Positions 21,949 through 36,809 of a stretch of DNA of 64,000 nucleotides are shown piece after piece (the first letter of the stretch is position 1; every line of letters begins with the position of its first letter). The position numbers were made by a program, and so were the translations under genes. The notes beneath the pieces were generated by a model. It had not been told where the DNA came from. It was given only the letters and a program-made list of their open reading frames with translations, and made no database searches. This DNA is from Escherichia coli (GTDB lineage: Bacteria > Pseudomonadota > Gammaproteobacteria > Enterobacterales > Enterobacteriaceae), in the NCBI RefSeq assembly GCF_003334335.1, contig NZ_QOWQ01000005.1. One strand, given 5' to 3'.

Positions 21949-22354
21949 AATAAATAGCTGACTTATGGATGTGCTGGGGATTCTATGTATTTAGCACCGG
22001 GTTTGCCATTACTTTTCCTTTTTTTGACTTAATTAGCCTCTGTTTGAGCTGATCTGCCGCTAGATCTTCATTTTTTTTGTATTTTTATGCGATTCATTGA
22101 ATTTCAGCCAGGATTGCAGCTTTACATCGACAATATCTGGATTCTCGAGTATGCAAAATTTTATCTCTATGATTTTTATAATTAAAACATATTTTGTGTA
22201 TAAAAATCATTCGGGTCGGATTGCTGCGAAAGAAATGATACACTAGCGCGTCAAAGTAAGTGCGTTATCAGTATTCGGGTAGCTGTTGAGCCTGGGGCGG
22301 TAGCGTGCTTTTTTCTGCTTAACTTAACCAGACAATCACACAAAAGAGTCGCTA
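21949..22354. promoter_or_regulatory. Divergent waaA / waaQ control region (AT-rich, long waaQ leader)
   Basis: 406-bp AT-rich intergenic region between divergent operons; contains the ops element listed separately. Confidence 0.55.
22296..22307 (+). promoter_or_regulatory. ops element GGCGGTAGCGTG (RfaH recruitment site, JUMPstart core)
   Basis: Exact GGCGGTAG octamer followed by CGTG, about 50 nt upstream of the waaQ start on the coding strand. Confidence 0.75.
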
Positions 22355-23425
22355 GTGGAAAAGCCATTTCGAAAAATCCTGGTCATAAAGATGCGATATC
22401 ACGGAGATATGTTATTAACTACTCCTGTAATCAGTACACTCAAGCAGAATTATCCCGACGCAAAAATCGATATGCTGCTTTACCAGGATACAATTCCGAT
22501 TTTATCTGAAAACCCAGAAATTAATGCACTCTATGGTATAAGCAATAAAGGTACGGGAACATTCGATAAAATTAAAAATGCACTTTCACTGATAAAAACT
22601 CTGCGTGCGAATAATTACGACCTGGTCATTAATCTTACGGATCAGTGGATGGTGGCCCTGCTGGTACGTTGTTTACCTGCTCGTATGAAAATATCGCAGC
22701 TTTATGGTCATCGGCAGCATGGCATTTGGAAAAAAAGCTTTACACACTTAGCGCCTATACACGGTACACATATTGTTGAGCGTAATTTGTCGGTCCTTGA
22801 GCCATTAGGTATTACCGATTTTTATACTGAAACAACCATGAGTTACGCCGAGGATTGCTGGAAGAAAATGCGCCAGGAATTAGATGCACTGGGCGTGAAA
22901 GATCATTATGTCGTCATCCAGCCGACAGCCAGACAGATATTTAAGTGCTGGGACAACGATAAATTTTCTATGGTTATCGATGCGTTGCAACATCGTGGTT
23001 ATCAGGTTGTGCTGACTTGTGGCCCTTCGGCAGATGATCTCGCTTGCGTAGATGAAATTGCACGAGGCTGCCAAACAAAACCTATTACCGGCCTTGCCGG
23101 TAAAACACGTTTTCCTGAACTGGGCGCATTAATTGATCATGCAGTGCTCTTTATTGGTGTGGATTCTGCGCCGGGGCATATTGCAGCGGCTGTGAAGACG
23201 CCAGTTATTAGCCTGTTTGGGGCCACTGATCATGTATTCTGGCGTCCATGGACCGAGAATATTATTCAGTTCTGGGCGGGGAATTATCAAAAAATGCCTA
23301 CCCGGCACGAACTTGACCGCAACAAAAAATATCTTTCTGTTATTCCAGCGGAAGATGTCATTGCCGCTACGGAAAAGCTGTTGCCAGAAGATGCACCTTC
23401 AGCTGACAGGAATGCGCAATTATGA
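22355..23425 (+). CDS. waaQ: LPS heptosyltransferase III (GT9)
   Basis: GTG start with AAAGAG RBS; N-terminal KILVIKMRYHGDML aligns with the WaaC/WaaF N-terminal motifs, so the start must lie upstream of Met13. Confidence 0.8.
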   Translation: MEKPFRKILVIKMRYHGDMLLTTPVISTLKQNYPDAKIDMLLYQDTIPILSENPEINALYGISNKGTGTFDKIKNALSLIKTLRANNYDLVINLTDQWMVALLVRCLPARMKISQLYGHRQHGIWKKSFTHLAPIHGTHIVERNLSVLEPLGITDFYTETTMSYAEDCWKKMRQELDALGVKDHYVVIQPTARQIFKCWDNDKFSMVIDALQHRGYQVVLTCGPSADDLACVDEIARGCQTKPITGLAGKTRFPELGALIDHAVLFIGVDSAPGHIAAAVKTPVISLFGATDHVFWRPWTENIIQFWAGNYQKMPTRHELDRNKKYLSVIPAEDVIAATEKLLPEDAPSADRNAQL

Positions 23426-24546: not shown

Positions 24547-25336
24547 ATTAGAAGAGCCACTTGCCACACTCTGGCGTGGTAAAGATGCCTTTGCAGAAGT
24601 TAAAAAACTGAATGGCGAGGTCTTCCGTGAACTGGAGACGCGTCGCACATTACGCTTTGAACTGGCCGGCAAAAGTTATTTCCTCAAATGGCACAAAGGG
24701 ACGACCCTAAAGGAGATTATAAAAAATCTGCTCTCATTGCGGATGCCCGTTTTAGGTGCAGACAGAGAGTGGCACGCTATTCATCGACTGCATGATGTCG
24801 GTGTTGATACGATGCACGGAATAGGATTTGGTGAAAAAGGGTTAAATCCATTAACTCGCACATCATTTATTATTACCGAAGATCTCACTCCCACAATTAG
24901 CCTTGAAGATTATTGTGCAGATTGGGCGGTCAACCCGCCTGATGTACATATTAAGCGTATGCTGATCGCGCGTGTGGCAACCATGGTGCGCAAAATGCAT
25001 GCAGCAGGGATTAATCACCGTGATTGTTATATCTGCCACTTTTTACTCCATTTGCCATTTACTGGCCGGGAAGATGAATTAAAAATTTCGGTTATCGATC
25101 TGCACCGGGCACAGATACGTGCAAAAGTACCACGTCGTTGGCGGGATAAAGATTTGATTGGTTTATATTTCTCATCAATGAATATTGGTCTGACGCAGAG
25201 AGATATCTGGCGATTTATGAAGGTTTATTTTGGGATGCCTTTACGCGATATTTATAGACTTGAGATTGATTTACTTAAAAAGGCAAGGATTAAAGCAGGA
25301 AAAATAGAAGCAAGAACAATAAGAAAAAACTTGTAA
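24539..25336 (+). CDS. waaP: LPS core heptose(I) kinase
   Basis: 265-aa ORF with kinase-like catalytic motifs ([11 protein letters not shown]); 8-nt overlap with waaG. Confidence 0.9.
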
Positions 25337-25368
25337 ATAGTATTTTATTACAAAAAGGGATTCTAAAA

Positions 25369-26349
25369 TTGTTGAAATATAGAAACTTCGTTGCTAAGAA
25401 GAAAAATTTATACCAAAACGAAGTGTCGTATGTTAAAAATTTACATATTGCACTATGCTTTGACCGTGAATTCATAATGCCAGCGGGTGTTGCATTATAT
25501 TCAATTATATCCAACAATAGACATATTAACCTTCATTTTCACCTTCTTATATCAGGCATAGAAGAAAAGGAGTGTTCAGCTTTTTACGAACTAGAAGGTC
25601 CTAATACATCAATATCTGTATATTATATAACTGATAAATTTGACATTAATCCGGATACATTAGTTCTTGGTATTCCTTTATCAACATGTTTACGTTTTTT
25701 AATCCCAGAAGTTATTGATGATAAAATAAATAAGATACTTTATCTTGACTGTGATGTCATATGTAATGGTCCTTTAGATGAACTGGTTGATTATAATTTA
25801 AATGCTGATATTGCATGTGTAATTCCAGATTCGCCAGAAATGCAAGAACGTGTAAAAAAATTAGACTATGGCATTGAGTTTATTAATTATTTTAATGCCG
25901 GGGTTATGTTTATTAATACCAGCGAATGGAAAAAAAATAATATAACACAAAAAGCGTTAGAAATGATCAACAGTGGAAAAGTATATAGGTATGCAGATCA
26001 GGATGTGCTCAATATTTTACTTAATGGACGAGTGCATTACCTTGATAAGAAGTACAATAATAAGACAACATTGTCAGTACGATGTGATGAAGAACAAAAA
26101 AACTTGCCCAACACAATTATAATGCATTATGTTACCCAGAATAAACCATGGTACAAAATATTTAGAGCACAAAATTTTGATCATTATTTTTCAAATTCTC
26201 CTTGGAAGAACCATAAAAGAAATCTAGCTCCATCATCAAGTGAGATTAGGTTAAAGTCTAAAGTTTTTTGGCTAGAAGGAAAATATTGTAAAGCCATTTC
26301 TTATTATTATAAGTATTTACTTGTTAAATTATTTGGCTTAAAGATTTAG
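25369..26349 (+). CDS. LPS core glycosyltransferase, GT8-like, at the waaS position
   Basis: 326-aa ORF from TTG start; YLDCDV (DxD), FNAGVMFIN and DQDVLN motifs shared with the two downstream GT8 paralogs; very low GC. Confidence 0.6.
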   Translation: MLKYRNFVAKKKNLYQNEVSYVKNLHIALCFDREFIMPAGVALYSIISNNRHINLHFHLLISGIEEKECSAFYELEGPNTSISVYYITDKFDINPDTLVLGIPLSTCLRFLIPEVIDDKINKILYLDCDVICNGPLDELVDYNLNADIACVIPDSPEMQERVKKLDYGIEFINYFNAGVMFINTSEWKKNNITQKALEMINSGKVYRYADQDVLNILLNGRVHYLDKKYNNKTTLSVRCDEEQKNLPNTIIMHYVTQNKPWYKIFRAQNFDHYFSNSPWKNHKRNLAPSSSEIRLKSKVFWLEGKYCKAISYYYKYLLVKLFGLKI

Positions 26350-26362
26350 CTGGAATGAAATT

Positions 26363-27442
26363 ATGAAAATAGCCTTTATTGGCGAAGCTGTTTCTGGATT
26401 TGGCGGCATGGAAACAGTCATTCGTGATGTTATTACTACCTTCAGGCAACAACATATCCAAAGTGAAATTTTTTTCTTTTGTCGTAATGACAAAATGGAT
26501 AAGGGATGGCTGGAAGGTATTAAGTACTCGTGTTCATTTTCCAATATTCGCTTAGGTTTTTTGCGTCGCGCGAAACATATTCATGCTTTAAGCAAATGGC
26601 TTCATGATTATCAGCCAGATGTTGTTATTTGTATTGACGTGATCTCGTGTTTGTATGCGGCCAAAGCTCGTAAAAAATCGGGGATTGATGTACCTGTATT
26701 TTCATGGCCGCATTTTTCTTTAGATCATAAAAAACATGCCGAATATATCACCTGTGCCGACTATCATTTAGCCATCAGCTCTGGTATTAAACAGCAAATG
26801 ATTAGCCGGGGTGTACCAGAATCGACAATAAACGTTATTTTTAATCCCGTTGAGGCGAAAAATTCAGTCATTCCTGCACCCGGGGAAGGCGAAACGGCAA
26901 CATTCATTTATGTTGGGCGCATGAAATTTGAAGGCCAAAAGCGCGTAAAAGATCTGCTTGATGGCTTATCACAAGTGCAAGGTGACTGGAAACTTCATGT
27001 ATTGGGAGATGGCTCCGATTTCGAAAAATGCCAGGCTTATGGTAGAGGATTAAATATTGATGATCGAATTGTCTGGTATGGTTGGCAACAACATCCCTGG
27101 AAATTAGTTCAGCAAGATATTAAAAAAGTGAGTGCATTATTACTCACGTCATCTTTTGAAGGTTTCCCAATGACTCTACTTGAAGCCTTGTCGTGGGGGA
27201 TCCCTTGTATCAGTGCAGATTGTGTCTCCGGGCCTGTTGATATCATTCAGCCTGATGTTAATGGTCATTTATATCAACCGGGGGATATGACCGGTTTTGT
27301 TGCTCTTCTCAATAAATACATAGCCGGTGAAATTCACATCGCACATGAAAAAATTCCGGCGTCGATCGATAAATTTTATCAACCGAAATATTACGACAGA
27401 TTGCAAAAGATAATTATTTCTGTTATTTCCCGGAGGAAATAA
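26363..27442 (+). CDS. waaB: LPS core alpha-1,6-galactosyltransferase (GT4)
   Basis: 359-aa ORF MKIAFIGEAVSGFGGMETV..., GT4 C-terminal EGFPMTLLEA motif. Confidence 0.8.
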   Translation: MKIAFIGEAVSGFGGMETVIRDVITTFRQQHIQSEIFFFCRNDKMDKGWLEGIKYSCSFSNIRLGFLRRAKHIHALSKWLHDYQPDVVICIDVISCLYAAKARKKSGIDVPVFSWPHFSLDHKKHAEYITCADYHLAISSGIKQQMISRGVPESTINVIFNPVEAKNSVIPAPGEGETATFIYVGRMKFEGQKRVKDLLDGLSQVQGDWKLHVLGDGSDFEKCQAYGRGLNIDDRIVWYGWQQHPWKLVQQDIKKVSALLLTSSFEGFPMTLLEALSWGIPCISADCVSGPVDIIQPDVNGHLYQPGDMTGFVALLNKYIAGEIHIAHEKIPASIDKFYQPKYYDRLQKIIISVISRRK

Positions 27443-28461
27443 TGCAGCAGGTTTTTTTCCAGGAGACTGAGTTTCTCAATTCGGTTATTGATTATAATCA
27501 TAAAATAGAAGCAGAAAATCTTTGTCTGGATATTGCTTATGGGACTGACAAAAATTTTCTTTTTGGATGCGGAATATCGATTGCTTCAATATTAAAATAT
27601 AATGAAGGAAATCAATTATGCTTTCATATTTTTACTGATTATTTCGGTGATGACGATCGCAAATATTTTGATGCCCTGGCCAGGCAATATAAAACAAGAA
27701 TTAAGATATATTTAATTAATGGTGATCGACTCCGTTCATTACCCTGCACCAAGAACTGGACTCATGCTATTTATTTTCGTTTTGTTATCGCCGATTACTT
27801 TTTTAATAAAGCACCCAAAGTTCTTTATCTGGATGCAGATATTATTTGTCAGGGAACTATAGAACCACTTATCAATTACACGTTTTCTGAACATACAGTC
27901 GCAATGGTTGTTACAGAAGGACAAAAAGACTGGTGGGCAAAACGTGCTCATTCGTTAGGTGTTGCTGGGATTGCTAATGGTTACTTTAACTCCGGTTTTT
28001 TACTGATTAATACTAATCAATGGACGAATGAGCGGGTTTCTGCACGGGCCATTGCAATGTTAAGTGATCCAGAGATAGTCAAAAAAATAACACATCCTGA
28101 TCAGGATGTATTAAATATGTTATTGGCAGACAAACTTGTTTATGCTGATATTAAATATAACACTCAGTTTAGTTTAAATTATCAACTAAAAGAAAGTTTT
28201 AAAAACCCAGTAACTAACGATACAGTTTTTATTCATTATATTGGTCCAACTAAACCCTGGCATGACTGGGCCTGGGATTATCCAATATCACAAGCTTTTA
28301 TGGCGGCAAAAAATGCTTCACCATGGAAGGATACTGCGTTATTGAAACCGGTTAATAGTAATCAATTAAGATACAGTGCTAAACATATGTTGAAAAAAAA
28401 GCAATATATCAAAGGATTTGGCAACTATCTTTTGTATTTTATAAAAAAGCTAAAGCATTAA
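27442..28461 (+). CDS. waaI: LPS core alpha-1,3-glycosyltransferase (GT8)
   Basis: 339-aa ORF; GT8 motifs YLDADIIC, FNSGFLLIN, DQDVLNMLL; 1-nt overlap with the waaB stop. Confidence 0.75.
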   Translation: MQQVFFQETEFLNSVIDYNHKIEAENLCLDIAYGTDKNFLFGCGISIASILKYNEGNQLCFHIFTDYFGDDDRKYFDALARQYKTRIKIYLINGDRLRSLPCTKNWTHAIYFRFVIADYFFNKAPKVLYLDADIICQGTIEPLINYTFSEHTVAMVVTEGQKDWWAKRAHSLGVAGIANGYFNSGFLLINTNQWTNERVSARAIAMLSDPEIVKKITHPDQDVLNMLLADKLVYADIKYNTQFSLNYQLKESFKNPVTNDTVFIHYIGPTKPWHDWAWDYPISQAFMAAKNASPWKDTALLKPVNSNQLRYSAKHMLKKKQYIKGFGNYLLYFIKKLKH

Positions 28462-28624
28462 TACTGATAATCTATACTCTAAATAATTCGAGTTGCAGGA
28501 CAAAAAGCCAGTGGCGTTTTGAGGAACGCTTGCGTTGGCCCTGAAATGCCGAGTAACTCGCCGATGCAGCACATGCAACTTGAAGTATAACGAGTATATA
28601 AAGTAATGATATAAGGATAGCCTT

Positions 28625-29641
28625 GTGAACTCATTTCCTGCCATAGAGATAGATAAAGTTAAAGCCTGGGATTTTAGGCTTATTGATGAAAATACTGCTG
28701 AAAGTTTAAATGTTGCCTATGGTGTCGATTCCAATTATCTTGATGGTGTAGGTGTTTCCATTACTTCAATTGTCATTAATAATCGACATGTTAATCTTGA
28801 TTTTTATATTATTGCTGATGTTTATAACGACGATTTCTTTCAAAAAGTTGAGAAACTTGCTGAGCAATACCAATTAAGAATCACACTTTATAGAATAAAT
28901 ACTGATAATCTTCAGTGCCTGCCTTGTACACAAGTCTGGTCAAGAGCAATGTACTTCCGTTTATTTGCTTTTCAATTATTGGGAGTAACACTTAATCGTT
29001 TGCTTTATCTTGATGCCGATGTAGTTTGTAAGGGAAATATTAGTCAACTATTGCATTTAGAGTTTAATGGAGCGGTGGCTGCAGTAGTCAGGGATGTAGA
29101 CCCAATGCAGGAAAAGGCGGTAGTCAGATTATCTGATCCTGAACTTCGGGGGCAGTATTTTAATTCTGGTGTCGTTTACTTAGACCTAAAAAAATGGACA
29201 GAAGCAAAACTAACCGAAAAAGCACTGTCTATTCTTATGAGTAAAGATAGTATTTATAAGTATCCTGACCAGGACGTTATGAATGTCCTACTAAAAGGGA
29301 TGACAATATTCCTGCCACGTGAGTTCAATACTATATATACAATAAAAAGTGAGTTAAAAGATAAAACGCATCAAAAATATAAAGAGTTGATAAAAGAGGA
29401 TACTCTTCTTATTCATTATACTGGGGCCACCAAGCCGTGGCACAAATGGGCAATTTATCCATCGGTAAAATACTATAAAATAGCTTTAGAAAGATCCCCC
29501 TGGAAAGATGACTCACCACGAGATGCAAAATCAATTATTGAATTCAAAAAAAGATATAAACATCTGTTAGTGCAACATCATTATATCTCAGGACTCATTG
29601 CAGGAGTGTGTTATCTTTGCCGAAAATATTACCGTAAATAA
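28625..29641 (+). CDS. waaJ: LPS core alpha-1,2-glycosyltransferase (GT8)
   Basis: 338-aa ORF from GTG start with AAGGA RBS; GT8 motifs YLDADVVC, FNSGVVYLD, DQDVMNVLL. Confidence 0.75.
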   Translation: MNSFPAIEIDKVKAWDFRLIDENTAESLNVAYGVDSNYLDGVGVSITSIVINNRHVNLDFYIIADVYNDDFFQKVEKLAEQYQLRITLYRINTDNLQCLPCTQVWSRAMYFRLFAFQLLGVTLNRLLYLDADVVCKGNISQLLHLEFNGAVAAVVRDVDPMQEKAVVRLSDPELRGQYFNSGVVYLDLKKWTEAKLTEKALSILMSKDSIYKYPDQDVMNVLLKGMTIFLPREFNTIYTIKSELKDKTHQKYKELIKEDTLLIHYTGATKPWHKWAIYPSVKYYKIALERSPWKDDSPRDAKSIIEFKKRYKHLLVQHHYISGLIAGVCYLCRKYYRK

Positions 29642-29658
29642 CATTTAACTGGTTTAAC

Positions 29659-30357
29659 ATGATTCAGAAGAATAAAATCAAAGATTTAGTTGTTTTTACC
29701 GATGAAAATAACTCAAAGTATCTCAATGTATTAAATGACTTTCTTTCTTATGATATTAATATCATCAAAGTTTTTCGTTCTATAGATGATACAAAAGTCA
29801 TGCTTATTGATACCGATTACGGTAAATTGATACTTAAAGTTTTTTCGCCTAAAGTAAAACGCAACGAACGTTTCTTTAAATCTCTTTTAAAGGGAGATTA
29901 TTATGAACGCCTTTTTGAGCATACTCAAAAAGTGCGTAACGAGGGGCTACATTCTCTCAATGATTTTTATTTGTTGGCAGAACGGAAAACATTACGTTTT
30001 GTCCATACTTATATCATGCTTATCGAATATATCGATGGCGTAGAGTTGTGTGATATCCCCGATATTGATGAAACTTTAAAAAATAAAATTCAACAATCAA
30101 TTCGTTCATTACACGAACACGGTATGGTATCTGGTGATCCTCACCGCGGTAATTTTATTATTGAAAATGGTGAAGTACGCATTATTGATCTTTCAGGAAA
30201 ACGGGCATCTGCACAACGTAAAGCGAAAGATCGTATTGATTTAGAGCGACATTATGGTATTAAGAATGAGGTTAAAGATCTCGGTTATTATCTTTTAGTT
30301 TATCGTAAAAAAATACGTAATCTTATGCGGCGTTTGAAAGGGAAGCCAGCACGATAA
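29659..30357 (+). CDS. waaY: LPS core heptose(II) kinase
   Basis: 232-aa ORF; small kinase-like protein at the position WaaY occupies in this cluster. Confidence 0.75.
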   Translation: MIQKNKIKDLVVFTDENNSKYLNVLNDFLSYDINIIKVFRSIDDTKVMLIDTDYGKLILKVFSPKVKRNERFFKSLLKGDYYERLFEHTQKVRNEGLHSLNDFYLLAERKTLRFVHTYIMLIEYIDGVELCDIPDIDETLKNKIQQSIRSLHEHGMVSGDPHRGNFIIENGEVRIIDLSGKRASAQRKAKDRIDLERHYGIKNEVKDLGYYLLVYRKKIRNLMRRLKGKPAR

Positions 30358-30428
30358 AGTAAAAGTCTTACATTTAAACGTCTTCGTCAGGACATTTCTA
30401 TGCGGAGTTCTTATTTCACAGGTTTATC

Positions 30429-31238
30429 ATGAAGAATATTAGATACATTGACAAAAAAGATGTTGAAAACCTGATAGAAAGTAAAACGTCTGATGATGTT
30501 ATTATTTTTCTTTCCGGCCCCGCATCGCAAAAAACACCATTGTCAGTGCTGCAGACAAGGGATGTTATTGCTGTCAATGGTTCTGCACAATATCTATTAA
30601 GTCATAATATTATTCCCTATATTTATGTACTTACCGATGTTCGCTTTTTACATCAACGGCGTGATGATTTTTATAAATTTAGCCAGAGAAGTCGTTATAC
30701 CATCGTAAATGTTGACGTTTATGAACATGCTTCTGAAGAAGATAAGCGGTACATCCTTCAAAACTGCCTGGTACTACGTTCATTTTACCGCAGAGAAAAA
30801 GGTGGATTGATCAAGAAGATCAAGTTTAATATTTTGAGCCGAATTCATAAAGAGCTCCTGATCTCTGTACCTTTTTCTAAAAAAGGTCGTCTGGTTGGCT
30901 TTTGCAAGGATATTAACCTCGGTTATTGTTCATGCCATACCGTTGCTTTTGCTGCAATCCAAATAGCCTATTCGCTGAAGTATGCTCGTATTATCTGTTC
31001 AGGCCTTGATTTAACGGGTAGCTGTTCGCGTTTCTATGATGAAGATAAGAATCCTATGCCCTCAGAGTTGACTCGGGATTTATTCAAAATTTTACCATTT
31101 TTCCGTTTTATGCGTGAAAATATAGAAGATATCAATATTTATAATTTATCCGACGATACTGCAATTCAATATGATATTATTCCCTATATGAAAATATCCG
31201 AAATTGAAGAGCCGTGTGTTTATGAAAAAATAAGCTAA
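30429..31238 (+). CDS. waaZ: LPS core biosynthesis protein WaaZ (KdoIII-associated)
   Basis: 269-aa ORF at the WaaZ position in the WaaY-WaaZ-WaaK order; assignment by position and size. Confidence 0.65.
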   Translation: MKNIRYIDKKDVENLIESKTSDDVIIFLSGPASQKTPLSVLQTRDVIAVNGSAQYLLSHNIIPYIYVLTDVRFLHQRRDDFYKFSQRSRYTIVNVDVYEHASEEDKRYILQNCLVLRSFYRREKGGLIKKIKFNILSRIHKELLISVPFSKKGRLVGFCKDINLGYCSCHTVAFAAIQIAYSLKYARIICSGLDLTGSCSRFYDEDKNPMPSELTRDLFKILPFFRFMRENIEDINIYNLSDDTAIQYDIIPYMKISEIEEPCVYEKIS

Positions 31239-31290
31239 TATTTTATATGTGTTTATTACGTGTTATAAATTATATTGGAGTTGGCTAATA

Positions 31291-32433
31291 ATGATTAAAA
31301 AAATAATATTTACCGTCACACCAATATTTTCTATACCGCCAAAAGGAGCTGCAGCGGTTGAAACATGGATTTATCAGGTCGCAAAAAGACTTTCGATTCC
31401 AGTAACTATCGCCTGTATTCGAAACGAAGGTTACCCAACCTACACAAAAGTAAATGATCACTGTGATATTCACTACATTGGTTTTAGTCGAGTCTATAAA
31501 CGACTTTTCCAAAAGTGGACTCGACTTGATCCTGTGCCATATTCTCAGCGTATTTTAAATACCCAACCTAAAAACACTGATCCGAAAGACTCTGTTATTG
31601 TTATCCACAATAGCATGAAGCTGTATAAACAGATTCGTAGCAGAAGCCCTCACGCGCAGCTAGTTATGCATCTTCATAATGCTTTCGAGCCAGGTGAGTT
31701 AGACAAAAATGCAAAGATAATTGTTCCTAGCCAGTTTCTTTTCGATTTCTATTCGGAAAAAATGCCTGATGCAAATATTGCTATTGTGCCTAATGGTTTT
31801 TGTTCTGAATCGTATGAACAAAATAATACTGAAGATTTGAGGCAGAAACTGAACATTGATGCAAATGATACCGTGTTATTATTTGCAGGAAGGATATCAC
31901 CAGATAAAGGTTGCCTGATGCTTATGGAGGCTTTTAATCAGCTGAATAAGATACAAGATAACCTCAAACTGGTGATTGTCGGAGATCCTTTTGCCAGTAA
32001 AAAAGGCGAAAAAGCTGAATATCAGAAAAAAGTTCTGGATGCAGCGAAAGCTATTGGAGCGCAATGCATTATGGCGGGTGGACAGCCTCCAGAGCAGATG
32101 CATAACTATTACCGTTTAGCAGATTTAGTTGTTGTTCCTTCTCAGGTAGAAGAAGCTTTTTGTATGGTAGCTGTTGAAGCGATGGCGGCAGGTAAACCAG
32201 TGCTTGCCAGTCAAAAAGGTGGAATTAGTGAGTTTGTTCTGGAAGGAATTACAGGCTATCACCTTGCAGAGCCTATGACATCTGAAAGTATTCTCGCGGA
32301 TATTAAGCGCGTTTTGGCGGATGCTGACAGAGCTCAAATTGCTAAAAATGCCCGAAATTTTGTTTTCTCAAAATATAGCTGGGAACATGTTACTCAGCGT
32401 TTTGAAGCACAAATACAAGACTGGTTTGGTTAA
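31291..32433 (+). CDS. waaK: LPS core GlcNAc transferase-like glycosyltransferase (GT4), Salmonella/R2-type
   Basis: ORF 31249..32433 trimmed to ATG 31291 (GGAG RBS at 31277-31280), 380 aa; GT4 fold; size fits WaaK rather than the K-12 WaaU length I recall. Confidence 0.65.
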   Translation: MIKKIIFTVTPIFSIPPKGAAAVETWIYQVAKRLSIPVTIACIRNEGYPTYTKVNDHCDIHYIGFSRVYKRLFQKWTRLDPVPYSQRILNTQPKNTDPKDSVIVIHNSMKLYKQIRSRSPHAQLVMHLHNAFEPGELDKNAKIIVPSQFLFDFYSEKMPDANIAIVPNGFCSESYEQNNTEDLRQKLNIDANDTVLLFAGRISPDKGCLMLMEAFNQLNKIQDNLKLVIVGDPFASKKGEKAEYQKKVLDAAKAIGAQCIMAGGQPPEQMHNYYRLADLVVVPSQVEEAFCMVAVEAMAAGKPVLASQKGGISEFVLEGITGYHLAEPMTSESILADIKRVLADADRAQIAKNARNFVFSKYSWEHVTQRFEAQIQDWFG

Positions 32434-32452
32434 AAATTATTGGATTTGAAGA

Positions 32453-32488
32453 GCCTGCCTGAACTTAATGTCAGGCAGGCTTTTTTTT
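32453..32488. terminator. Bidirectional terminator between convergent waaK and waaL
   Basis: Perfect 10-bp stem gcctgcctga / tcaggcaggc with 8-nt loop and T8 run; the waaL stop codon lies within the T-run. Confidence 0.7.
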
Positions 32489-33704
32489 ATTTATTCCGCA
32501 TTGCTAACAGTAAACCAACAATCAAGCCAATTGGTTTGAGATCAACTTCCTCGAAGTTACCTCGAATAATATAAAAGCTTACAAGCGTTAAAAATAGTAG
32601 TAATTGACCATTATAAGGAGTGACGACAACTGTTTTAAACGTTGCATTAGCTGTCTCTTTGATAATAGAGCCATACAGATAAAGTAAAGCGAGTAGTCCA
32701 GCCAAACCCGCTGCAAACCAAATTGACAAAACAACGTTGTGTGGCCCAATGGATTGCCTGAACTTCCATGACGGAAAATCTACAACACGCTTATTATATA
32801 TTGCATGGTAAATATCATCGCCGTAGCCATATCCCTTAAGAGGATTTTCCATAATTAATGTCCACGCCGTACCTTGAGTACCATTGGTATAGCGATAAGA
32901 ACTGTCGGTCTGTTGAAGTTTATAAATAAGCCTGTCTTTACCAGCATGATCACCTTTATAGGTAAATACACCCACTGCGGCAACAGAAATAACGATGGAA
33001 GTCAGCATCAATAATTTCCACTGACGATTTAAGATTAACCATAGCAGAGTCACTATGAATACTGCCAGCCATGCACCACGAGACAGCGTTCCTAATAGCA
33101 GAAATAAGAAAACTGCACTAAAAATTACGAATGCTATTTTATAAGAGGTTTTCTTGATAAGCCAAAGGTTTAATAATGCTGGAAACAGAAACACCATTGA
33201 ATCGGAAATACTACGGTGTTCATAGGTGGAAAATGGCATTATTCCTTTATTATAATCCTGAATATAAAGAATAAGTTCAACAAGACAACGTAAGCCAAGT
33301 CCGGTAACTAATGAGTATAGTACAATTTTACCAATGCTTTCATTATCTTCATCTTTTAATAATGCAGGTATAAGTAAACTATAGGCCAAAAATCCTTTAA
33401 GTACCGTATTACTGAATTCTTTAAAACTGATTTTCAGATCAGGTGATATAAAAGTAGCATATAAAAGAATGAGTGATAGTGCCAGGACACTATAAAAAAG
33501 ATTATTTTTATAGAGTACTTTAAATGTTCCCGGAGCACGAGAAACTTGATAGATTACCGTAATAATCATTAGTATAGATATGATGTGTTTATAACGGGTT
33601 ATACCATCAAGGAAAAAGGTTGCAATAAAGAGGAATACCAACGCTTTATTCCAGTACGGTTTCCACTTTTCTTTATTACGTAGCGCCAGCGAGGCTGTTA
33701 ACAT
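32487..33704 (-). CDS. waaL: O-antigen ligase
   Basis: 405-aa polytopic membrane ORF MLTASLALRNKEKWKPYWNKALVFLF...; N-terminus resembles the Salmonella/R2-type WaaL I recall, not the K-12 WaaL. Confidence 0.85.
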   Translation of the reverse strand: MLTASLALRNKEKWKPYWNKALVFLFIATFFLDGITRYKHIISILMIITVIYQVSRAPGTFKVLYKNNLFYSVLALSLILLYATFISPDLKISFKEFSNTVLKGFLAYSLLIPALLKDEDNESIGKIVLYSLVTGLGLRCLVELILYIQDYNKGIMPFSTYEHRSISDSMVFLFPALLNLWLIKKTSYKIAFVIFSAVFLFLLLGTLSRGAWLAVFIVTLLWLILNRQWKLLMLTSIVISVAAVGVFTYKGDHAGKDRLIYKLQQTDSSYRYTNGTQGTAWTLIMENPLKGYGYGDDIYHAIYNKRVVDFPSWKFRQSIGPHNVVLSIWFAAGLAGLLALLYLYGSIIKETANATFKTVVVTPYNGQLLLFLTLVSFYIIRGNFEEVDLKPIGLIVGLLLAMRNK

Positions 33705-33742
33705 TGCTTCTCCACCATCTTAAATAATATATAACGTATTAA

Positions 33743-34699
33743 TCAGGAATTGATTTTATTAAATACCGTTTCTGCAGTCAGATGAGCAAGATCTTTATCT
33801 GGTGCCCTACAAACCACCTGATTCTTCCCATATCCGCCAATTAATCCCGGATCGGTTGGTCCATAAACCGTGATATTCGGTCGATCCAGTGCTGCAGTTA
33901 AATGACTTAACCCAGTGTCTACCGATACCACGAATTTCGCTCCGGCCAGCACACGGGCAACACCTTCCAGACTCATCTTCGGCAATACTTCAACATAAGC
34001 AAATCCTTCCGCCAGTCGTTTCGCCCGTTTTTCCTCATGCGGCGCACCCCACGGAAGTTTAATGCGAATCCCTGAATCTGCCAGTAAACCAATCAATTCT
34101 CGCCAGTGTTCTTCCGGCCAGTGTTTATCATCACGGGTCGTCGCATGAAGAAATACGGCATATTCGCCAGCATCTGTAGGCAGGTTCGTCAGAAAATGCT
34201 GTGCGATAGCATAATCGCCCTGGGTTTGCGGTTTGCTATAGCCCAGACTTTTGGCAAAAAGTTCGCGGATGCGTTCTACGGCGTGCTGCTGTTTTGCAAT
34301 ATGATGTTTACGATTGTAAAACAGGCTGGCTAAAGGTTCGCGAGCGGTTTGCCAGTCCATTCCATGCTTTACGCCATGCGCCAGACGCGTCACCAGCGCC
34401 GCGCTTTTTACCAGCCCCTGAGCATCGATAACTGCGTCATAGTTCTCTGCTTGTAGCGCTTCACGAAACGCTTTGCGTTCAGCTTTTATGGGGGCCGAGA
34501 ACCAGGCTTTACGCCAGCGACGTATTGCCACAGGAATAACTCGCTCAACGGCGGCGTGCCAGGAAGGAATCTGTGCGAACCCTTCTTCCACCACCCAGTC
34601 AAACTTAATCCCTGGGATTGCCTGCTGGGCATCAGTGAGTGCGGGCAACGTATGGAGAACATCGCCCATCGACGATGTTTTAACGATCAAAACCCGCAT
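33743..34699 (-). CDS. waaC: LPS heptosyltransferase I (GT9)
   Basis: 318-aa ORF MRVLIVKTSSMGDVLHTLPALTDA. Confidence 0.9.
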   Translation of the reverse strand: MRVLIVKTSSMGDVLHTLPALTDAQQAIPGIKFDWVVEEGFAQIPSWHAAVERVIPVAIRRWRKAWFSAPIKAERKAFREALQAENYDAVIDAQGLVKSAALVTRLAHGVKHGMDWQTAREPLASLFYNRKHHIAKQQHAVERIRELFAKSLGYSKPQTQGDYAIAQHFLTNLPTDAGEYAVFLHATTRDDKHWPEEHWRELIGLLADSGIRIKLPWGAPHEEKRAKRLAEGFAYVEVLPKMSLEGVARVLAGAKFVVSVDTGLSHLTAALDRPNITVYGPTDPGLIGGYGKNQVVCRAPDKDLAHLTAETVFNKINS

Positions 34700-34702
34700 C
34701 CG

Positions 34703-35749
34703 TCAGGCTTCCTCTTGTAACAATAGAGAGTTGAGTTCTTCCAGCACGCGCTGGGGAGTAATGTCGATCAAGCTCTGGTGATAACCTTCTGCGGCGTCGC
34801 CTTTGCGTACTTTGTGATAGCCGGTAATCAGGCGGATCACGCGCGCTTTATGGGATAGCGGCGGTGTGAAGTCCGGGCTACTCGGACCATACAGGGCAAC
34901 CAGCGGACGATTGAGCGCCGCCGCAACGTGCATCAGGCCAGAATCGTTAGTGACAATGGCTTTACAGGCTGCAATCAGGATAACCGCTTGATCAAGCTGT
35001 GTTTCCCCCGCCAGGTTCCGGCACCATGCCTGCTGCTCGGTATTTAAAGCGGCAAGAATCTCATTGCCCGCTTCATGATCTTTCGCCGAGCCAAACAGAA
35101 CCACTTGATAACCTTCATCAATCAGTTGCTTTGCCAGTTCCGCATAGTGGTAGTGTGGCCAGCGTTTTGCCGGACCAAACTCCGCACCCGGGCAAAAACC
35201 AATCATTGGACGTTCTGATGAAAGCGAAAATTGATTACAGGTATATGATTTTTCACCTTCGCTCACCTGCAACTGCGGCCATAACAATGGCTGCGGCAGA
35301 TCTTGTGCGGTACGCATAATACCTTTGTCATAGGCCAGCGCCACATAGCGTTCCACCATCAGCGGCCAGGCTTCTTTATCCAGCACACGCACATCGTTGA
35401 GTAAACCGTAGCGCATTTCGCCGCGCCAGCCGGTGCGATGAGGAATACCCGCGAAGAAAGGCACTAATGCGGATTTGAAGGAGTTGGGTAAAACGTAGGC
35501 GCGGTCGTAACGTTTTTCGCGCAGGCTATGACCCAGCTTGCGGCGTTCGCCAATTTCCAGCGCCCCGTGACCAAGCGGCATAGGAATGGCTTCGTTAACT
35601 TCCGGCATCCGCGATAATAATGGACGGCACCATGCCGGTGCCATCACGTCGATTATCGCCTGGGGATAGCGCGCCTGGAGCGTGCGATAGAGACTTTGCG
35701 ACATCATCATGTCGCCAACCCATGACGGGCCGATCACCAATATTTTCAT
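34703..35749 (-). CDS. waaF: LPS heptosyltransferase II (GT9)
   Basis: 348-aa ORF MKILVIGPSWVGDMMMSQSLYRTL. Confidence 0.9.
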   Translation of the reverse strand: MKILVIGPSWVGDMMMSQSLYRTLQARYPQAIIDVMAPAWCRPLLSRMPEVNEAIPMPLGHGALEIGERRKLGHSLREKRYDRAYVLPNSFKSALVPFFAGIPHRTGWRGEMRYGLLNDVRVLDKEAWPLMVERYVALAYDKGIMRTAQDLPQPLLWPQLQVSEGEKSYTCNQFSLSSERPMIGFCPGAEFGPAKRWPHYHYAELAKQLIDEGYQVVLFGSAKDHEAGNEILAALNTEQQAWCRNLAGETQLDQAVILIAACKAIVTNDSGLMHVAAALNRPLVALYGPSSPDFTPPLSHKARVIRLITGYHKVRKGDAAEGYHQSLIDITPQRVLEELNSLLLQEEA

Positions 35750-35828
35750 TCACTTCATCCTTCAAGCTGTCTCTGCGGCGGCTGCCTGCGTTCACTCCGG
35801 TCACTTACTTTTGTAAGCTCCCGGAGAT

Positions 35829-36809
35829 TCACTTAGTTGCTGCCTTGATACTGCTCGAATGATTTTGTGAATTTACGTTGATGTCGCGATTCAGCCAGGC
35901 CATGTATTCCGTTACGCCTTCGGCAACGGTTTTGAACGGTTTGTCATAACCCGCCGCGCGCAGATTCGTCAGATCTGCCTGCGTGAATGCCTGATAGCGG
36001 CCTTTCAGTTTATCCGGGAACGGAATGTATTCGATCTGGCCTTTCTTGTGATAAGCAAGCGTTGCATCGGCTACCGCCTGGAAGGATTCCGCACGACCAG
36101 TACCGAGGTTGAAGATGCCGGAAACGCCATTTTCCAGGAACCACAGGTTTACATCTGCCACGTCGCCAACATAGACGAAGTCGCGTTTAAAGTTCTCGCT
36201 ACCTTCGAACAGTTTCGGTGATTCACCGTTATTAAGCTGGGTGTTGAGATGGAAAGCGACGCTCGCCATGCTGCCTTTATGGCCTTCACGCGGTCCATAA
36301 ACGTTGAAATAACGGAAGCCAACAATCTGTGAGTTTGCTTCCGGCAGAATTTGACGAACATATTCATCAAACAGGAATTTCGAGTAACCGTAGACGTTCA
36401 ACGGTTTTTCGTACTCGCGGGATTCAATAAAGTCGGAAGTGCGACCGCCGTAAGTGGCTGCGGATGAAGCGTACAGGAACGGGATTTCACGCTCCAGGCA
36501 GTAGTGCAGCAGCTCCTTGGAGTATTGATAGTTGTTATCCATCATATACTTGCCGTCCCACTCGGTGGTGGAAGAGCACGCGCCTTCGTGGAAAATCGCT
36601 TCGACATCGCCGAACTCTTCGCCAGCCATAATCTGGATCAGGAAGTCTTCCTTATCCATATAGTCTGCGATATTCAGGTCCACCAGGTTCACAAACTTGG
36701 TGCCGTCTTTCAGGTTGTCCACCACCAGAATATCGGTGATGCCTTTGTCATTCAGGGCTTTAACGATGTTGCTGCCGATAAAGCCCGCGCCGCCGGTAAC
36801 GATGATCAT
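35829..36809 (-). CDS. hldD: ADP-L-glycero-D-manno-heptose 6-epimerase, with a 16-residue C-terminal extension
   Basis: 326-aa [22 protein letters not shown] (Rossmann); ends ...[23 protein letters not shown] where I recall the canonical protein ending ...AWLNRDA (310 aa). Confidence 0.85.

Follow-up and report, generated by a model that had tools for sequence, protein, structure and literature searches.

The genes of the LPS-core (waa) cluster lie so close together that a single wide gap among them raises the question of what it contains and how it arose. In the window, the 64,000-nt stretch of Escherichia coli DNA analysed here (contig NZ_QOWQ01000005.1), the cluster runs along the + strand from waaQ through a GlcNAc transferase gene (Table 1), and its gene content appears nearest to that of the R2 core; the cluster is therefore called R2-like below. 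The gap between waaO and rfaJ/waaR measures 163 bp, while the remaining gaps of the operon are -4, -8, 32, 13, -1, 17, 71, and 63 bp. The first-pass annotation, which had singled out this gap in an otherwise tight operon, gave its coordinates exactly and had also quoted a GC-richer stretch inside it, which is found at 28495-28577. GC content is 38% in the operon, 41% in the spacer, 45% in the element described below, and 55% in the interior of that element (28498-28573). The boundaries of the gap are secure on both sides: the waaO product scores 572 bits against NCBIfam model NF011718 (cutoff 461) and its gene ends with a TAA stop codon at 28459-28461, rfaJ/waaR starts with GTG at 28625 behind the Shine-Dalgarno sequence AAGGA at 28613-28617, and PGAP places identical waaO/rfaJ boundaries in a genome that matches the window at 100% over the 163-bp spacer. 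The GT8 gene at 25369-26349 reaches 184 bits against the same waaO-type model, under the cutoff of 461. Its place is taken by rfaS in K-12-type clusters, and the two genes are unrelated (BLASTP E = 1.8), which reads as a non-homologous cassette replacement.

The first-pass annotation had left the origin of the spacer between a recombination scar, an internal promoter or processing site, and a small RNA. The analysis leads to a different answer. With a probability of roughly 0.88, the extra 124 bp represent one insertion of an ERIC/IRU-family MITE at a TA dinucleotide, in the form of a core-less derivative that is probably an immobile, passive passenger of the operon. The earlier reading was thus correct in recognizing a foreign, GC-richer sequence in the spacer, though it did not name the repeat as a member of the ERIC/IRU family.

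Table 1. Features of the waa cluster and of the waaO-rfaJ/waaR spacer, with positions counted in the window.
Feature	Position	Strand	Basis or remark
ops element GGCGGTAGCGTG	22296..22307	+	upstream of waaQ; 1 match against 0.12 expected by chance
waaQ	22355-23425	+	followed by waaG and waaP
GT8 gene, fourth of the operon	25369-26349	+	
waaB	between the GT8 gene (25369-26349) and waaO	+	
waaO (GT8, LPS 3-alpha-galactosyltransferase family)	27442..28461	+	ORF list, NCBIfam, PGAP; upstream of the spacer
Original spacer left of the insertion, TACTGATAATC	28462..28472	+	aligns with the K-12-type spacer; same in the diverged allele L008
TA, left copy of the target-site duplication	28473..28474	.	comparison of empty and filled sites; by convention the first two ERIC bases
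ERIC/IRU-family miniature inverted-repeat element, core-less, with hairpin module, 126 bp	28473..28598	+	alignments, SeRU-1 ends, fold
Left terminal inverted repeat TATACTCTAAATAATTCGAGTTGCA	28473..28497	+	identical to the left ends of aligned ERIC copies
Interior	28498..28573	+	head of module A and tail of module B; canonical ERIC core missing
Right terminal inverted repeat TGCAACTTGAAGTATAACGAGTATA	28574..28598	+	last bases are the right TA of the duplication, 28597-28598
Original spacer right of the insertion	28599..28624	+	24/26 positions match the K-12-type spacer; holds the rfaJ/waaR Shine-Dalgarno sequence
rfaJ/waaR (GT8, LPS 1,2-glucosyltransferase)	28625..29641	+	ORF list, PGAP; downstream of the spacer
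rfaY, waaZ	3' of rfaJ/waaR	+	
GlcNAc transferase gene	31291-32433	+	
waaL, waaC, waaF, hldD	after the GlcNAc transferase gene	-	

The origin of the spacer becomes apparent through comparison with an empty site. In K-12-type waa clusters (waaQGP-rfaS-waaB-waaO-rfaJ-rfaY-waaZ-waaU), the waaO-rfaJ spacer measures 39 bp, which is exactly 124 bp less than the 163 bp of the filled spacer. The K-12-type junction reads ...GGGAAAC-TA-TAAAGTAATG..., and the window reads ...GATAATC-TA-(122 bp)-TA-TAAAGTAATG...; over a longer distance, a hand-refined alignment sets ...GCATTAAAACTGGGAAAC-TA-TAAAGTAATGATATAAGGGTAGCATTGTG of the K-12 type against ...GCATTAATACTGATAATC-TA-(122 bp)-TA-TAAAGTAATGATATAAGGATAGCCTTGTG of the window. 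Against the K-12-type cluster, one BLAST block runs up to 28476 and the next begins at 28597, the two sharing 4 nt (TATA) of the subject. The target is TATA in one allele, which leaves it ambiguous which TA was duplicated. At the junction the two sequences differ by a clean insertion of 124 bp and the doubling of a TA, and duplication of a TA target is listed in reviews as a property of ERICs. The insertion point is 11 nt downstream of the stop codon of waaO, and 26 nt separate it from the start of rfaJ; the Shine-Dalgarno sequence and GTG codon of rfaJ are untouched. The comparison indicates that an ERIC/IRU-family element inserted once into a TA of the waaO-rfaJ/waaR spacer and duplicated it, leaving the ribosome-binding site of rfaJ intact.

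The inserted element forms an imperfect palindrome whose 25-nt terminal arms are 80% complementary, and its + strand, which is the sense strand of the waa operon, shows it in the same orientation as the Wilson & Sharp consensus. Its RNA is predicted to fold at -41.8 kcal/mol (z = -3.98), and 0 of 200 shuffled sequences were as stable. The first-pass annotation had proposed a fold prediction and would have regarded a spacer without structure as evidence against its suggestions; the spacer proved to be strongly structured. An imperfect palindrome of ~127 bp that folds into a long hairpin is characteristic of ERICs, and the 126-bp element has this form. Its terminal inverted repeats carry the family sequence TATAC.C.AAATAATTCGAGTTGCAG ... 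GCAACTTGAAGTATGACG.GTATA. Alignment places the ends column by column against long ERICs and the canonical 127-bp ERIC of the K-12 cusF-cusC locus, and the interior matches a ~70-bp block that forms the extra insertion in the long copy at pepB-iscX. Identity to the published Salmonella ERIC SeRU-1 (Delihas, 2007, Table 1a; PMC2759123) is 28/28 at the left end and 29/30 or 36/40 at the right end, and the middle 58 nt are unrelated to it. Identity to the E. coli ERIC consensus is 25/28 on the left and 24/30 on the right. The element shares with ERICs insertion at TA with duplication of the TA and empty sites in relatives, as well as dispersed, multicopy occurrence in intergenic positions within transcription units of Enterobacteriaceae. 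A literature search for ERICs in connection with waaO, waaR, or the R2 core found nothing relevant.

One feature of the family is missing. The canonical ERIC core, GTGAATCCCCAGGAGCTTACAT, has no match within 3 mismatches in the spacer, and the alignment with long ERICs shows the window copy gapped throughout the core columns. With the core absent, it is the terminal repeats, the TA duplication, and a chain of intermediate forms that tie the element to the family. Copies that combine the ends, the module, and the core provide this link, and the element is therefore classed as an internally rearranged ERIC derivative and not as a canonical member.

The interior itself can be traced to the long ERICs. 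Its head derives from their ~70-bp hairpin module A (CAAAA.GCC...GGCGTTTTG, CGCTTGCG, GGCCC...) and its tail, TAACTCGCCGATGCAG, from their module B, so that the window copy consists of a module A head joined to a module B tail (TAAC(C/T)CGCAG) just before the right repeat. Identity between the interior and module A of Escherichia 273-bp copies reaches 91% over 81-82 nt. RU-3, a repeat of Delihas placed "at the 3' side of pepB," was rejected as an origin for the interior module; it is REP-like (tgccggatgcggcg...) and has no match in the spacer. A scan for the interior motif CGTTTTGARSARCGCTTGC, in which each bacterial species was represented by a single genome, yielded at least 120 loci, which serve as examples rather than a census and include chance hits in unrelated phyla. 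Among the matches listed, with these chance hits included, the motif stands between ERIC terminal repeats at both ends in 68/121 and at one end or more in 87/121, and such flanking is usual for the hits in Enterobacterales. The genera include Escherichia, Enterobacter, Klebsiella, Citrobacter, Salmonella, Leminorella, Pectobacterium, Symbiopectobacterium, and Serratia. Three length classes were found: ~194-197 bp, with left repeat, module A, core, and right repeat; ~254-273 bp, with the core and two extra modules, which flank the core in the Escherichia 271-273-bp copies; and ~124-149 bp, with the module only and without the core.

The best BLAST matches of the element are Escherichia 273-bp ERICs, which align in two pieces ~141 bp apart, and in the alignment the window copy corresponds to the Escherichia 273-bp form with 147 bp taken out, the whole core among them. 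The simplest reading starts from a two-module 273-bp ERIC and removes the 147 bp between repeated module ends, though change in the opposite direction, or recurrent independent deletions, are possible origins of the core-less form. The same internal junction occurs in the E. coli copy of the uhpA-ilvN region and in a copy of Klebsiella spallanzanii; a 124-bp copy of K. oxytoca has a different one. Similar core-less copies are also present in Klebsiella, Citrobacter, Pectobacterium, and Leminorella. The uhpA-ilvN copy (E. coli EcPF18, L002:2501-2626) is a core-less ERIC of 126 bp, 80% identical to the waa copy; it adjoins a DUF6708 pseudogene between uhpA and ilvN, and its RNA fold is much weaker (z = -1.9).

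The spacer was searched for by BLAST in 5,426 complete E. coli genomes, which gives the distribution of the filled site. Full-length matches, and with them the filled site, are found in 484-487 of these genomes (~9%), a count that agrees with the 486 genomes in which the waaO-rfaJ flanks reach 90% or more identity with the window. Flanks of the K-12 type, at 80-90% identity, occur in ~1,050 genomes, and in the examples examined their match span is ~124 bp shorter; the 39-bp empty site was seen directly in two K-12-type clusters inspected in detail. One K-12-type waa cluster, that of E. coli G4/9 (L007; NZ_CP060073.1), is annotated with frameshifted or fragmented genes from rfaS to waaU, which may reflect a low-quality assembly or a truly decayed core cluster. 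The spacing after waaO is 25 bp in an R3-like cluster and 16 bp in an R1/R4-like cluster, and the element was not found at the waaO-rfaJ junction of any other core type examined. In a diverged allele of the window cluster (strain 32F4; L008) the element occupies the same site, and it appears fixed in the R2-like core type. The first-pass annotation had named a plain intergenic spacer shared by all waa clusters as the finding that would speak against it; among the core types compared, the sequence occurs in the R2-like type only.

Partial matches to the spacer are present in 5,411 of the 5,426 genomes, in a median of 3 places per genome at the stringency used. Other copies lie at cusF-cusC, at pepB-iscX, at uhpA-ilvN, and downstream of mnmH, the first three being intergenic and unannotated in RefSeq. 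When the 72-nt interior served as the only query, 496 genomes gave a single place each, a search too insensitive to count the other E. coli copies; of its low-identity hits, the two inspected are the diverged waa allele L008 and the partial copy downstream of mnmH.

Comparison with this diverged allele also reveals how the interior has changed. The window and L008 differ at 94 positions in 5,072 nt, and 11 of these fall within 75 nt of the interior (28506-28580 against L008:2509-2583). Divergence of the interior is therefore 14.7% against a background of 1.7%, or about nine times faster (binomial P ~5e-8, and ~3e-6 after window correction). A perfect 10-bp palindrome is kept in L008 and broken in the window allele. 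When the changes are polarised with other ERIC copies, derived interior changes are seen in both lineages. Such a hot spot points to hairpin-templated mutation or to ectopic conversion among ERIC copies.

A second ERIC-family insertion is present in the window at ~35753-35882, between hldD/rfaD (35829-36809) and waaF (34703-35749), both on the - strand. It retains the canonical core (AGTGAATCTCCGGGAGCTTACAAAAGTAAGTGACCGGAGTGAACG) between degenerate ends and aligns with SeRU-1 over ~118 nt without gaps. Only 9 bp separate hldD and waaF in the K-12 type. The hldD reading frame enters this ERIC, by which the C-terminus ...NRDA* (310 aa) becomes a product of 326 aa that PGAP annotates as full rfaD. 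At ~480 of 5,426 genomes, its frequency is close to that of the waaO-rfaJ element, and both elements are oriented alike with respect to transcription.

Among the alternatives, the recombination scar suggested earlier would have the spacer join gene cassettes of different core types, and the cluster is indeed mosaic relative to the K-12 type, with the GT8 gene in place of waaS and waaK/waaL in place of waaU/waaL. Homology nevertheless runs continuously through the junction, at 88.3% identity over 26362-28476 and 86.6% over 28597-31193, the 124-bp insertion with its TA duplication being the sole difference at that point. The truly non-homologous cassettes, 25247-26361 (GT8 gene for rfaS) and 31194-33799 (waaK/waaL for waaU/waaL), start 2.1 kb upstream and 2.6 kb downstream, and a scar at this position is hardly credible. 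Scarcely better placed, and very unlikely as well, is an internal promoter, an independent small RNA, or a small protein encoded in the spacer. MITEs are able to create promoters according to reviews, and one weak promoter-like match lies at 28458-28487, but the scan counted 5 promoter-like sites where shuffled sequences gave 3.2 ± 1.4, the spacer holding none of good quality, and the earlier suggestion of a promoter thus finds no signal above chance. The small RNA fares no better: the scan found no terminator-like site, a search of 27500-29500 against Rfam 15 at a permissive E-value gave only a chance snoRNA match outside the spacer (E = 0.31), and the sequence is that of a dispersed repeat. 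For a protein, it can be said that a 64-codon ORF on the minus strand (28450-28644) spans the spacer and is open in L008 too; it has no NCBIfam match, however, and differs from the L008 version at 10/64 residues. It was rejected as a gene, being a known stop-free ERIC frame whose ends, YSLYFKLHVL... and ...SCNSNYLEY, match published translations.

A further proposal grants that the sequence is an element but makes it a selected, cis-acting RNA processing site or stability hairpin that sets different mRNA levels for waaQ-waaO and rfaJ-waaK. The stable hairpin would suit such a role, as would the location within an operon at a distance of 11 nt from a stop codon and retention in essentially all of the ~485 genomes with the cluster, the diverged allele L008 included, since fixation is also expected if the element is useful. 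Reviews report that Yersinia ERICs are co-transcribed and that in one orientation the 3' repeat presents an exposed RNase E site, with destabilisation of the upstream mRNA; by this analogy the processing site suggested earlier is plausible. The ERIC at hldD-waaF shares the orientation relative to transcription and overlaps a stop codon. Retention is explained equally well, however, by the lack of excision of an immobile MITE, and K-12-type clusters without the element have orthologous waaB, waaO, rfaJ, rfaY, and waaZ. The accelerated change of the interior and the loss of its 10-bp palindrome in the window allele suggest a sequence without conservation or constraint, which counts against a selected role. 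Selection for such a function is accordingly considered improbable. A broader proposal, which appears equally doubtful, holds that the core-less 124-149 bp derivatives are a once-mobile subfamily and not decay products, that the waa copy perhaps uncouples waaQ-waaO from rfaJ-waaK expression as an RNA processing or stability element, and that its hypervariable interior arose by ectopic conversion.

The insertion of a core-less ERIC derivative remains the preferred reading, and its consequences for the operon may be outlined as follows. The ops element is the mark of the long, RfaH-dependent waaQ operon, for which RfaH-dependent read-through is established. In the window, ops (GGCGGTAGCGTG) lies 48 nt 5' of the waaQ start, as expected for this operon. 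Because the position of ops upstream of waaQ fits RfaH-dependent read-through, the element should be present in the long mRNA and form its hairpin there; the lack of terminator-like sites and of promoter-like sites above chance level in the scan gives further indirect support to co-transcription. The element would be transcribed with the waaQ operon under ops/RfaH control, its mRNA copy folding into a long hairpin, and it would no longer be mobile but passively carried and fixed in the R2-like waa haplotype. Any effect would concern segmental mRNA stability or processing, by analogy with the ERICs of Yersinia; the element could have a modest effect on mRNA structure or processing, and a selected function in the waa operon is unlikely. 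If processing were modulated, the locus would be a natural example of stoichiometry tuned by a MITE within an LPS-core operon, though no finding requires this.

The insertion explains an odd spacer in a well-studied operon, where the repeat is unannotated by RefSeq in every genome checked. ERIC searches based on the core, and ERIC-PCR priming, would miss copies like the one in waa. Together with the ERIC at hldD-waaF, the waaO-rfaJ element provides a handy marker of the R2-like waa haplotype, which accounts for ~9% of complete E. coli genomes.

Among the intergenic repeats compared, only ERICs match the ends of the spacer. REP/BIME elements and the RU-3 of Delihas are likewise short, structured, intergenic, and co-transcribed with operons, but their sequences are unrelated to the spacer. 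The ERICs of Yersinia belong to the same family as the waa copy and resemble it in the TA duplication, in the position next to a stop codon within an operon, and in an RNA predicted to form a hairpin; they differ in the interior, which makes up most of the hairpin. De Gregorio and colleagues are said to have described, in 2005, the co-transcription of Yersinia ERICs and their orientation-dependent cleavage by RNase E.

With the 127-bp MITE known as ERIC, IRU, or RU-1, which was reportedly described by Sharples and Lloyd in 1990 and by Hulton and colleagues in 1991, the waa element shares the palindrome, near-identical terminal repeats, the TA ends, the TA duplication, an intergenic site inside a transcription unit near a stop codon, and multicopy occurrence across Enterobacterales. 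The difference lies in the center, where the core (GTGAATCCCCAGGAGCTTACAT...AAGTAAGTGACTGGGGTGAGCG; the ERIC1R/ERIC2 primer sites, with a 44-bp consensus) is replaced by other sequence in the waa copy. The closest comparison is with the long ERICs that carry ~70-bp insertions, namely the pepB-iscX copy and the 194-197-bp and 254-273-bp copies of Escherichia, Enterobacter, Leminorella, and Pectobacterium, whose module A is homologous to the waa interior. These keep the canonical core between or beside their modules, whereas the waa copy has lost the core and returned to a length of 126 bp. ERICs with insertions of ~70 bp, and ERICs with internal deletions, were reportedly both described by Wilson and Sharp in 2006, and the waa copy, which has both an insertion module and an internal deletion, is inside the known range of variation of the family.
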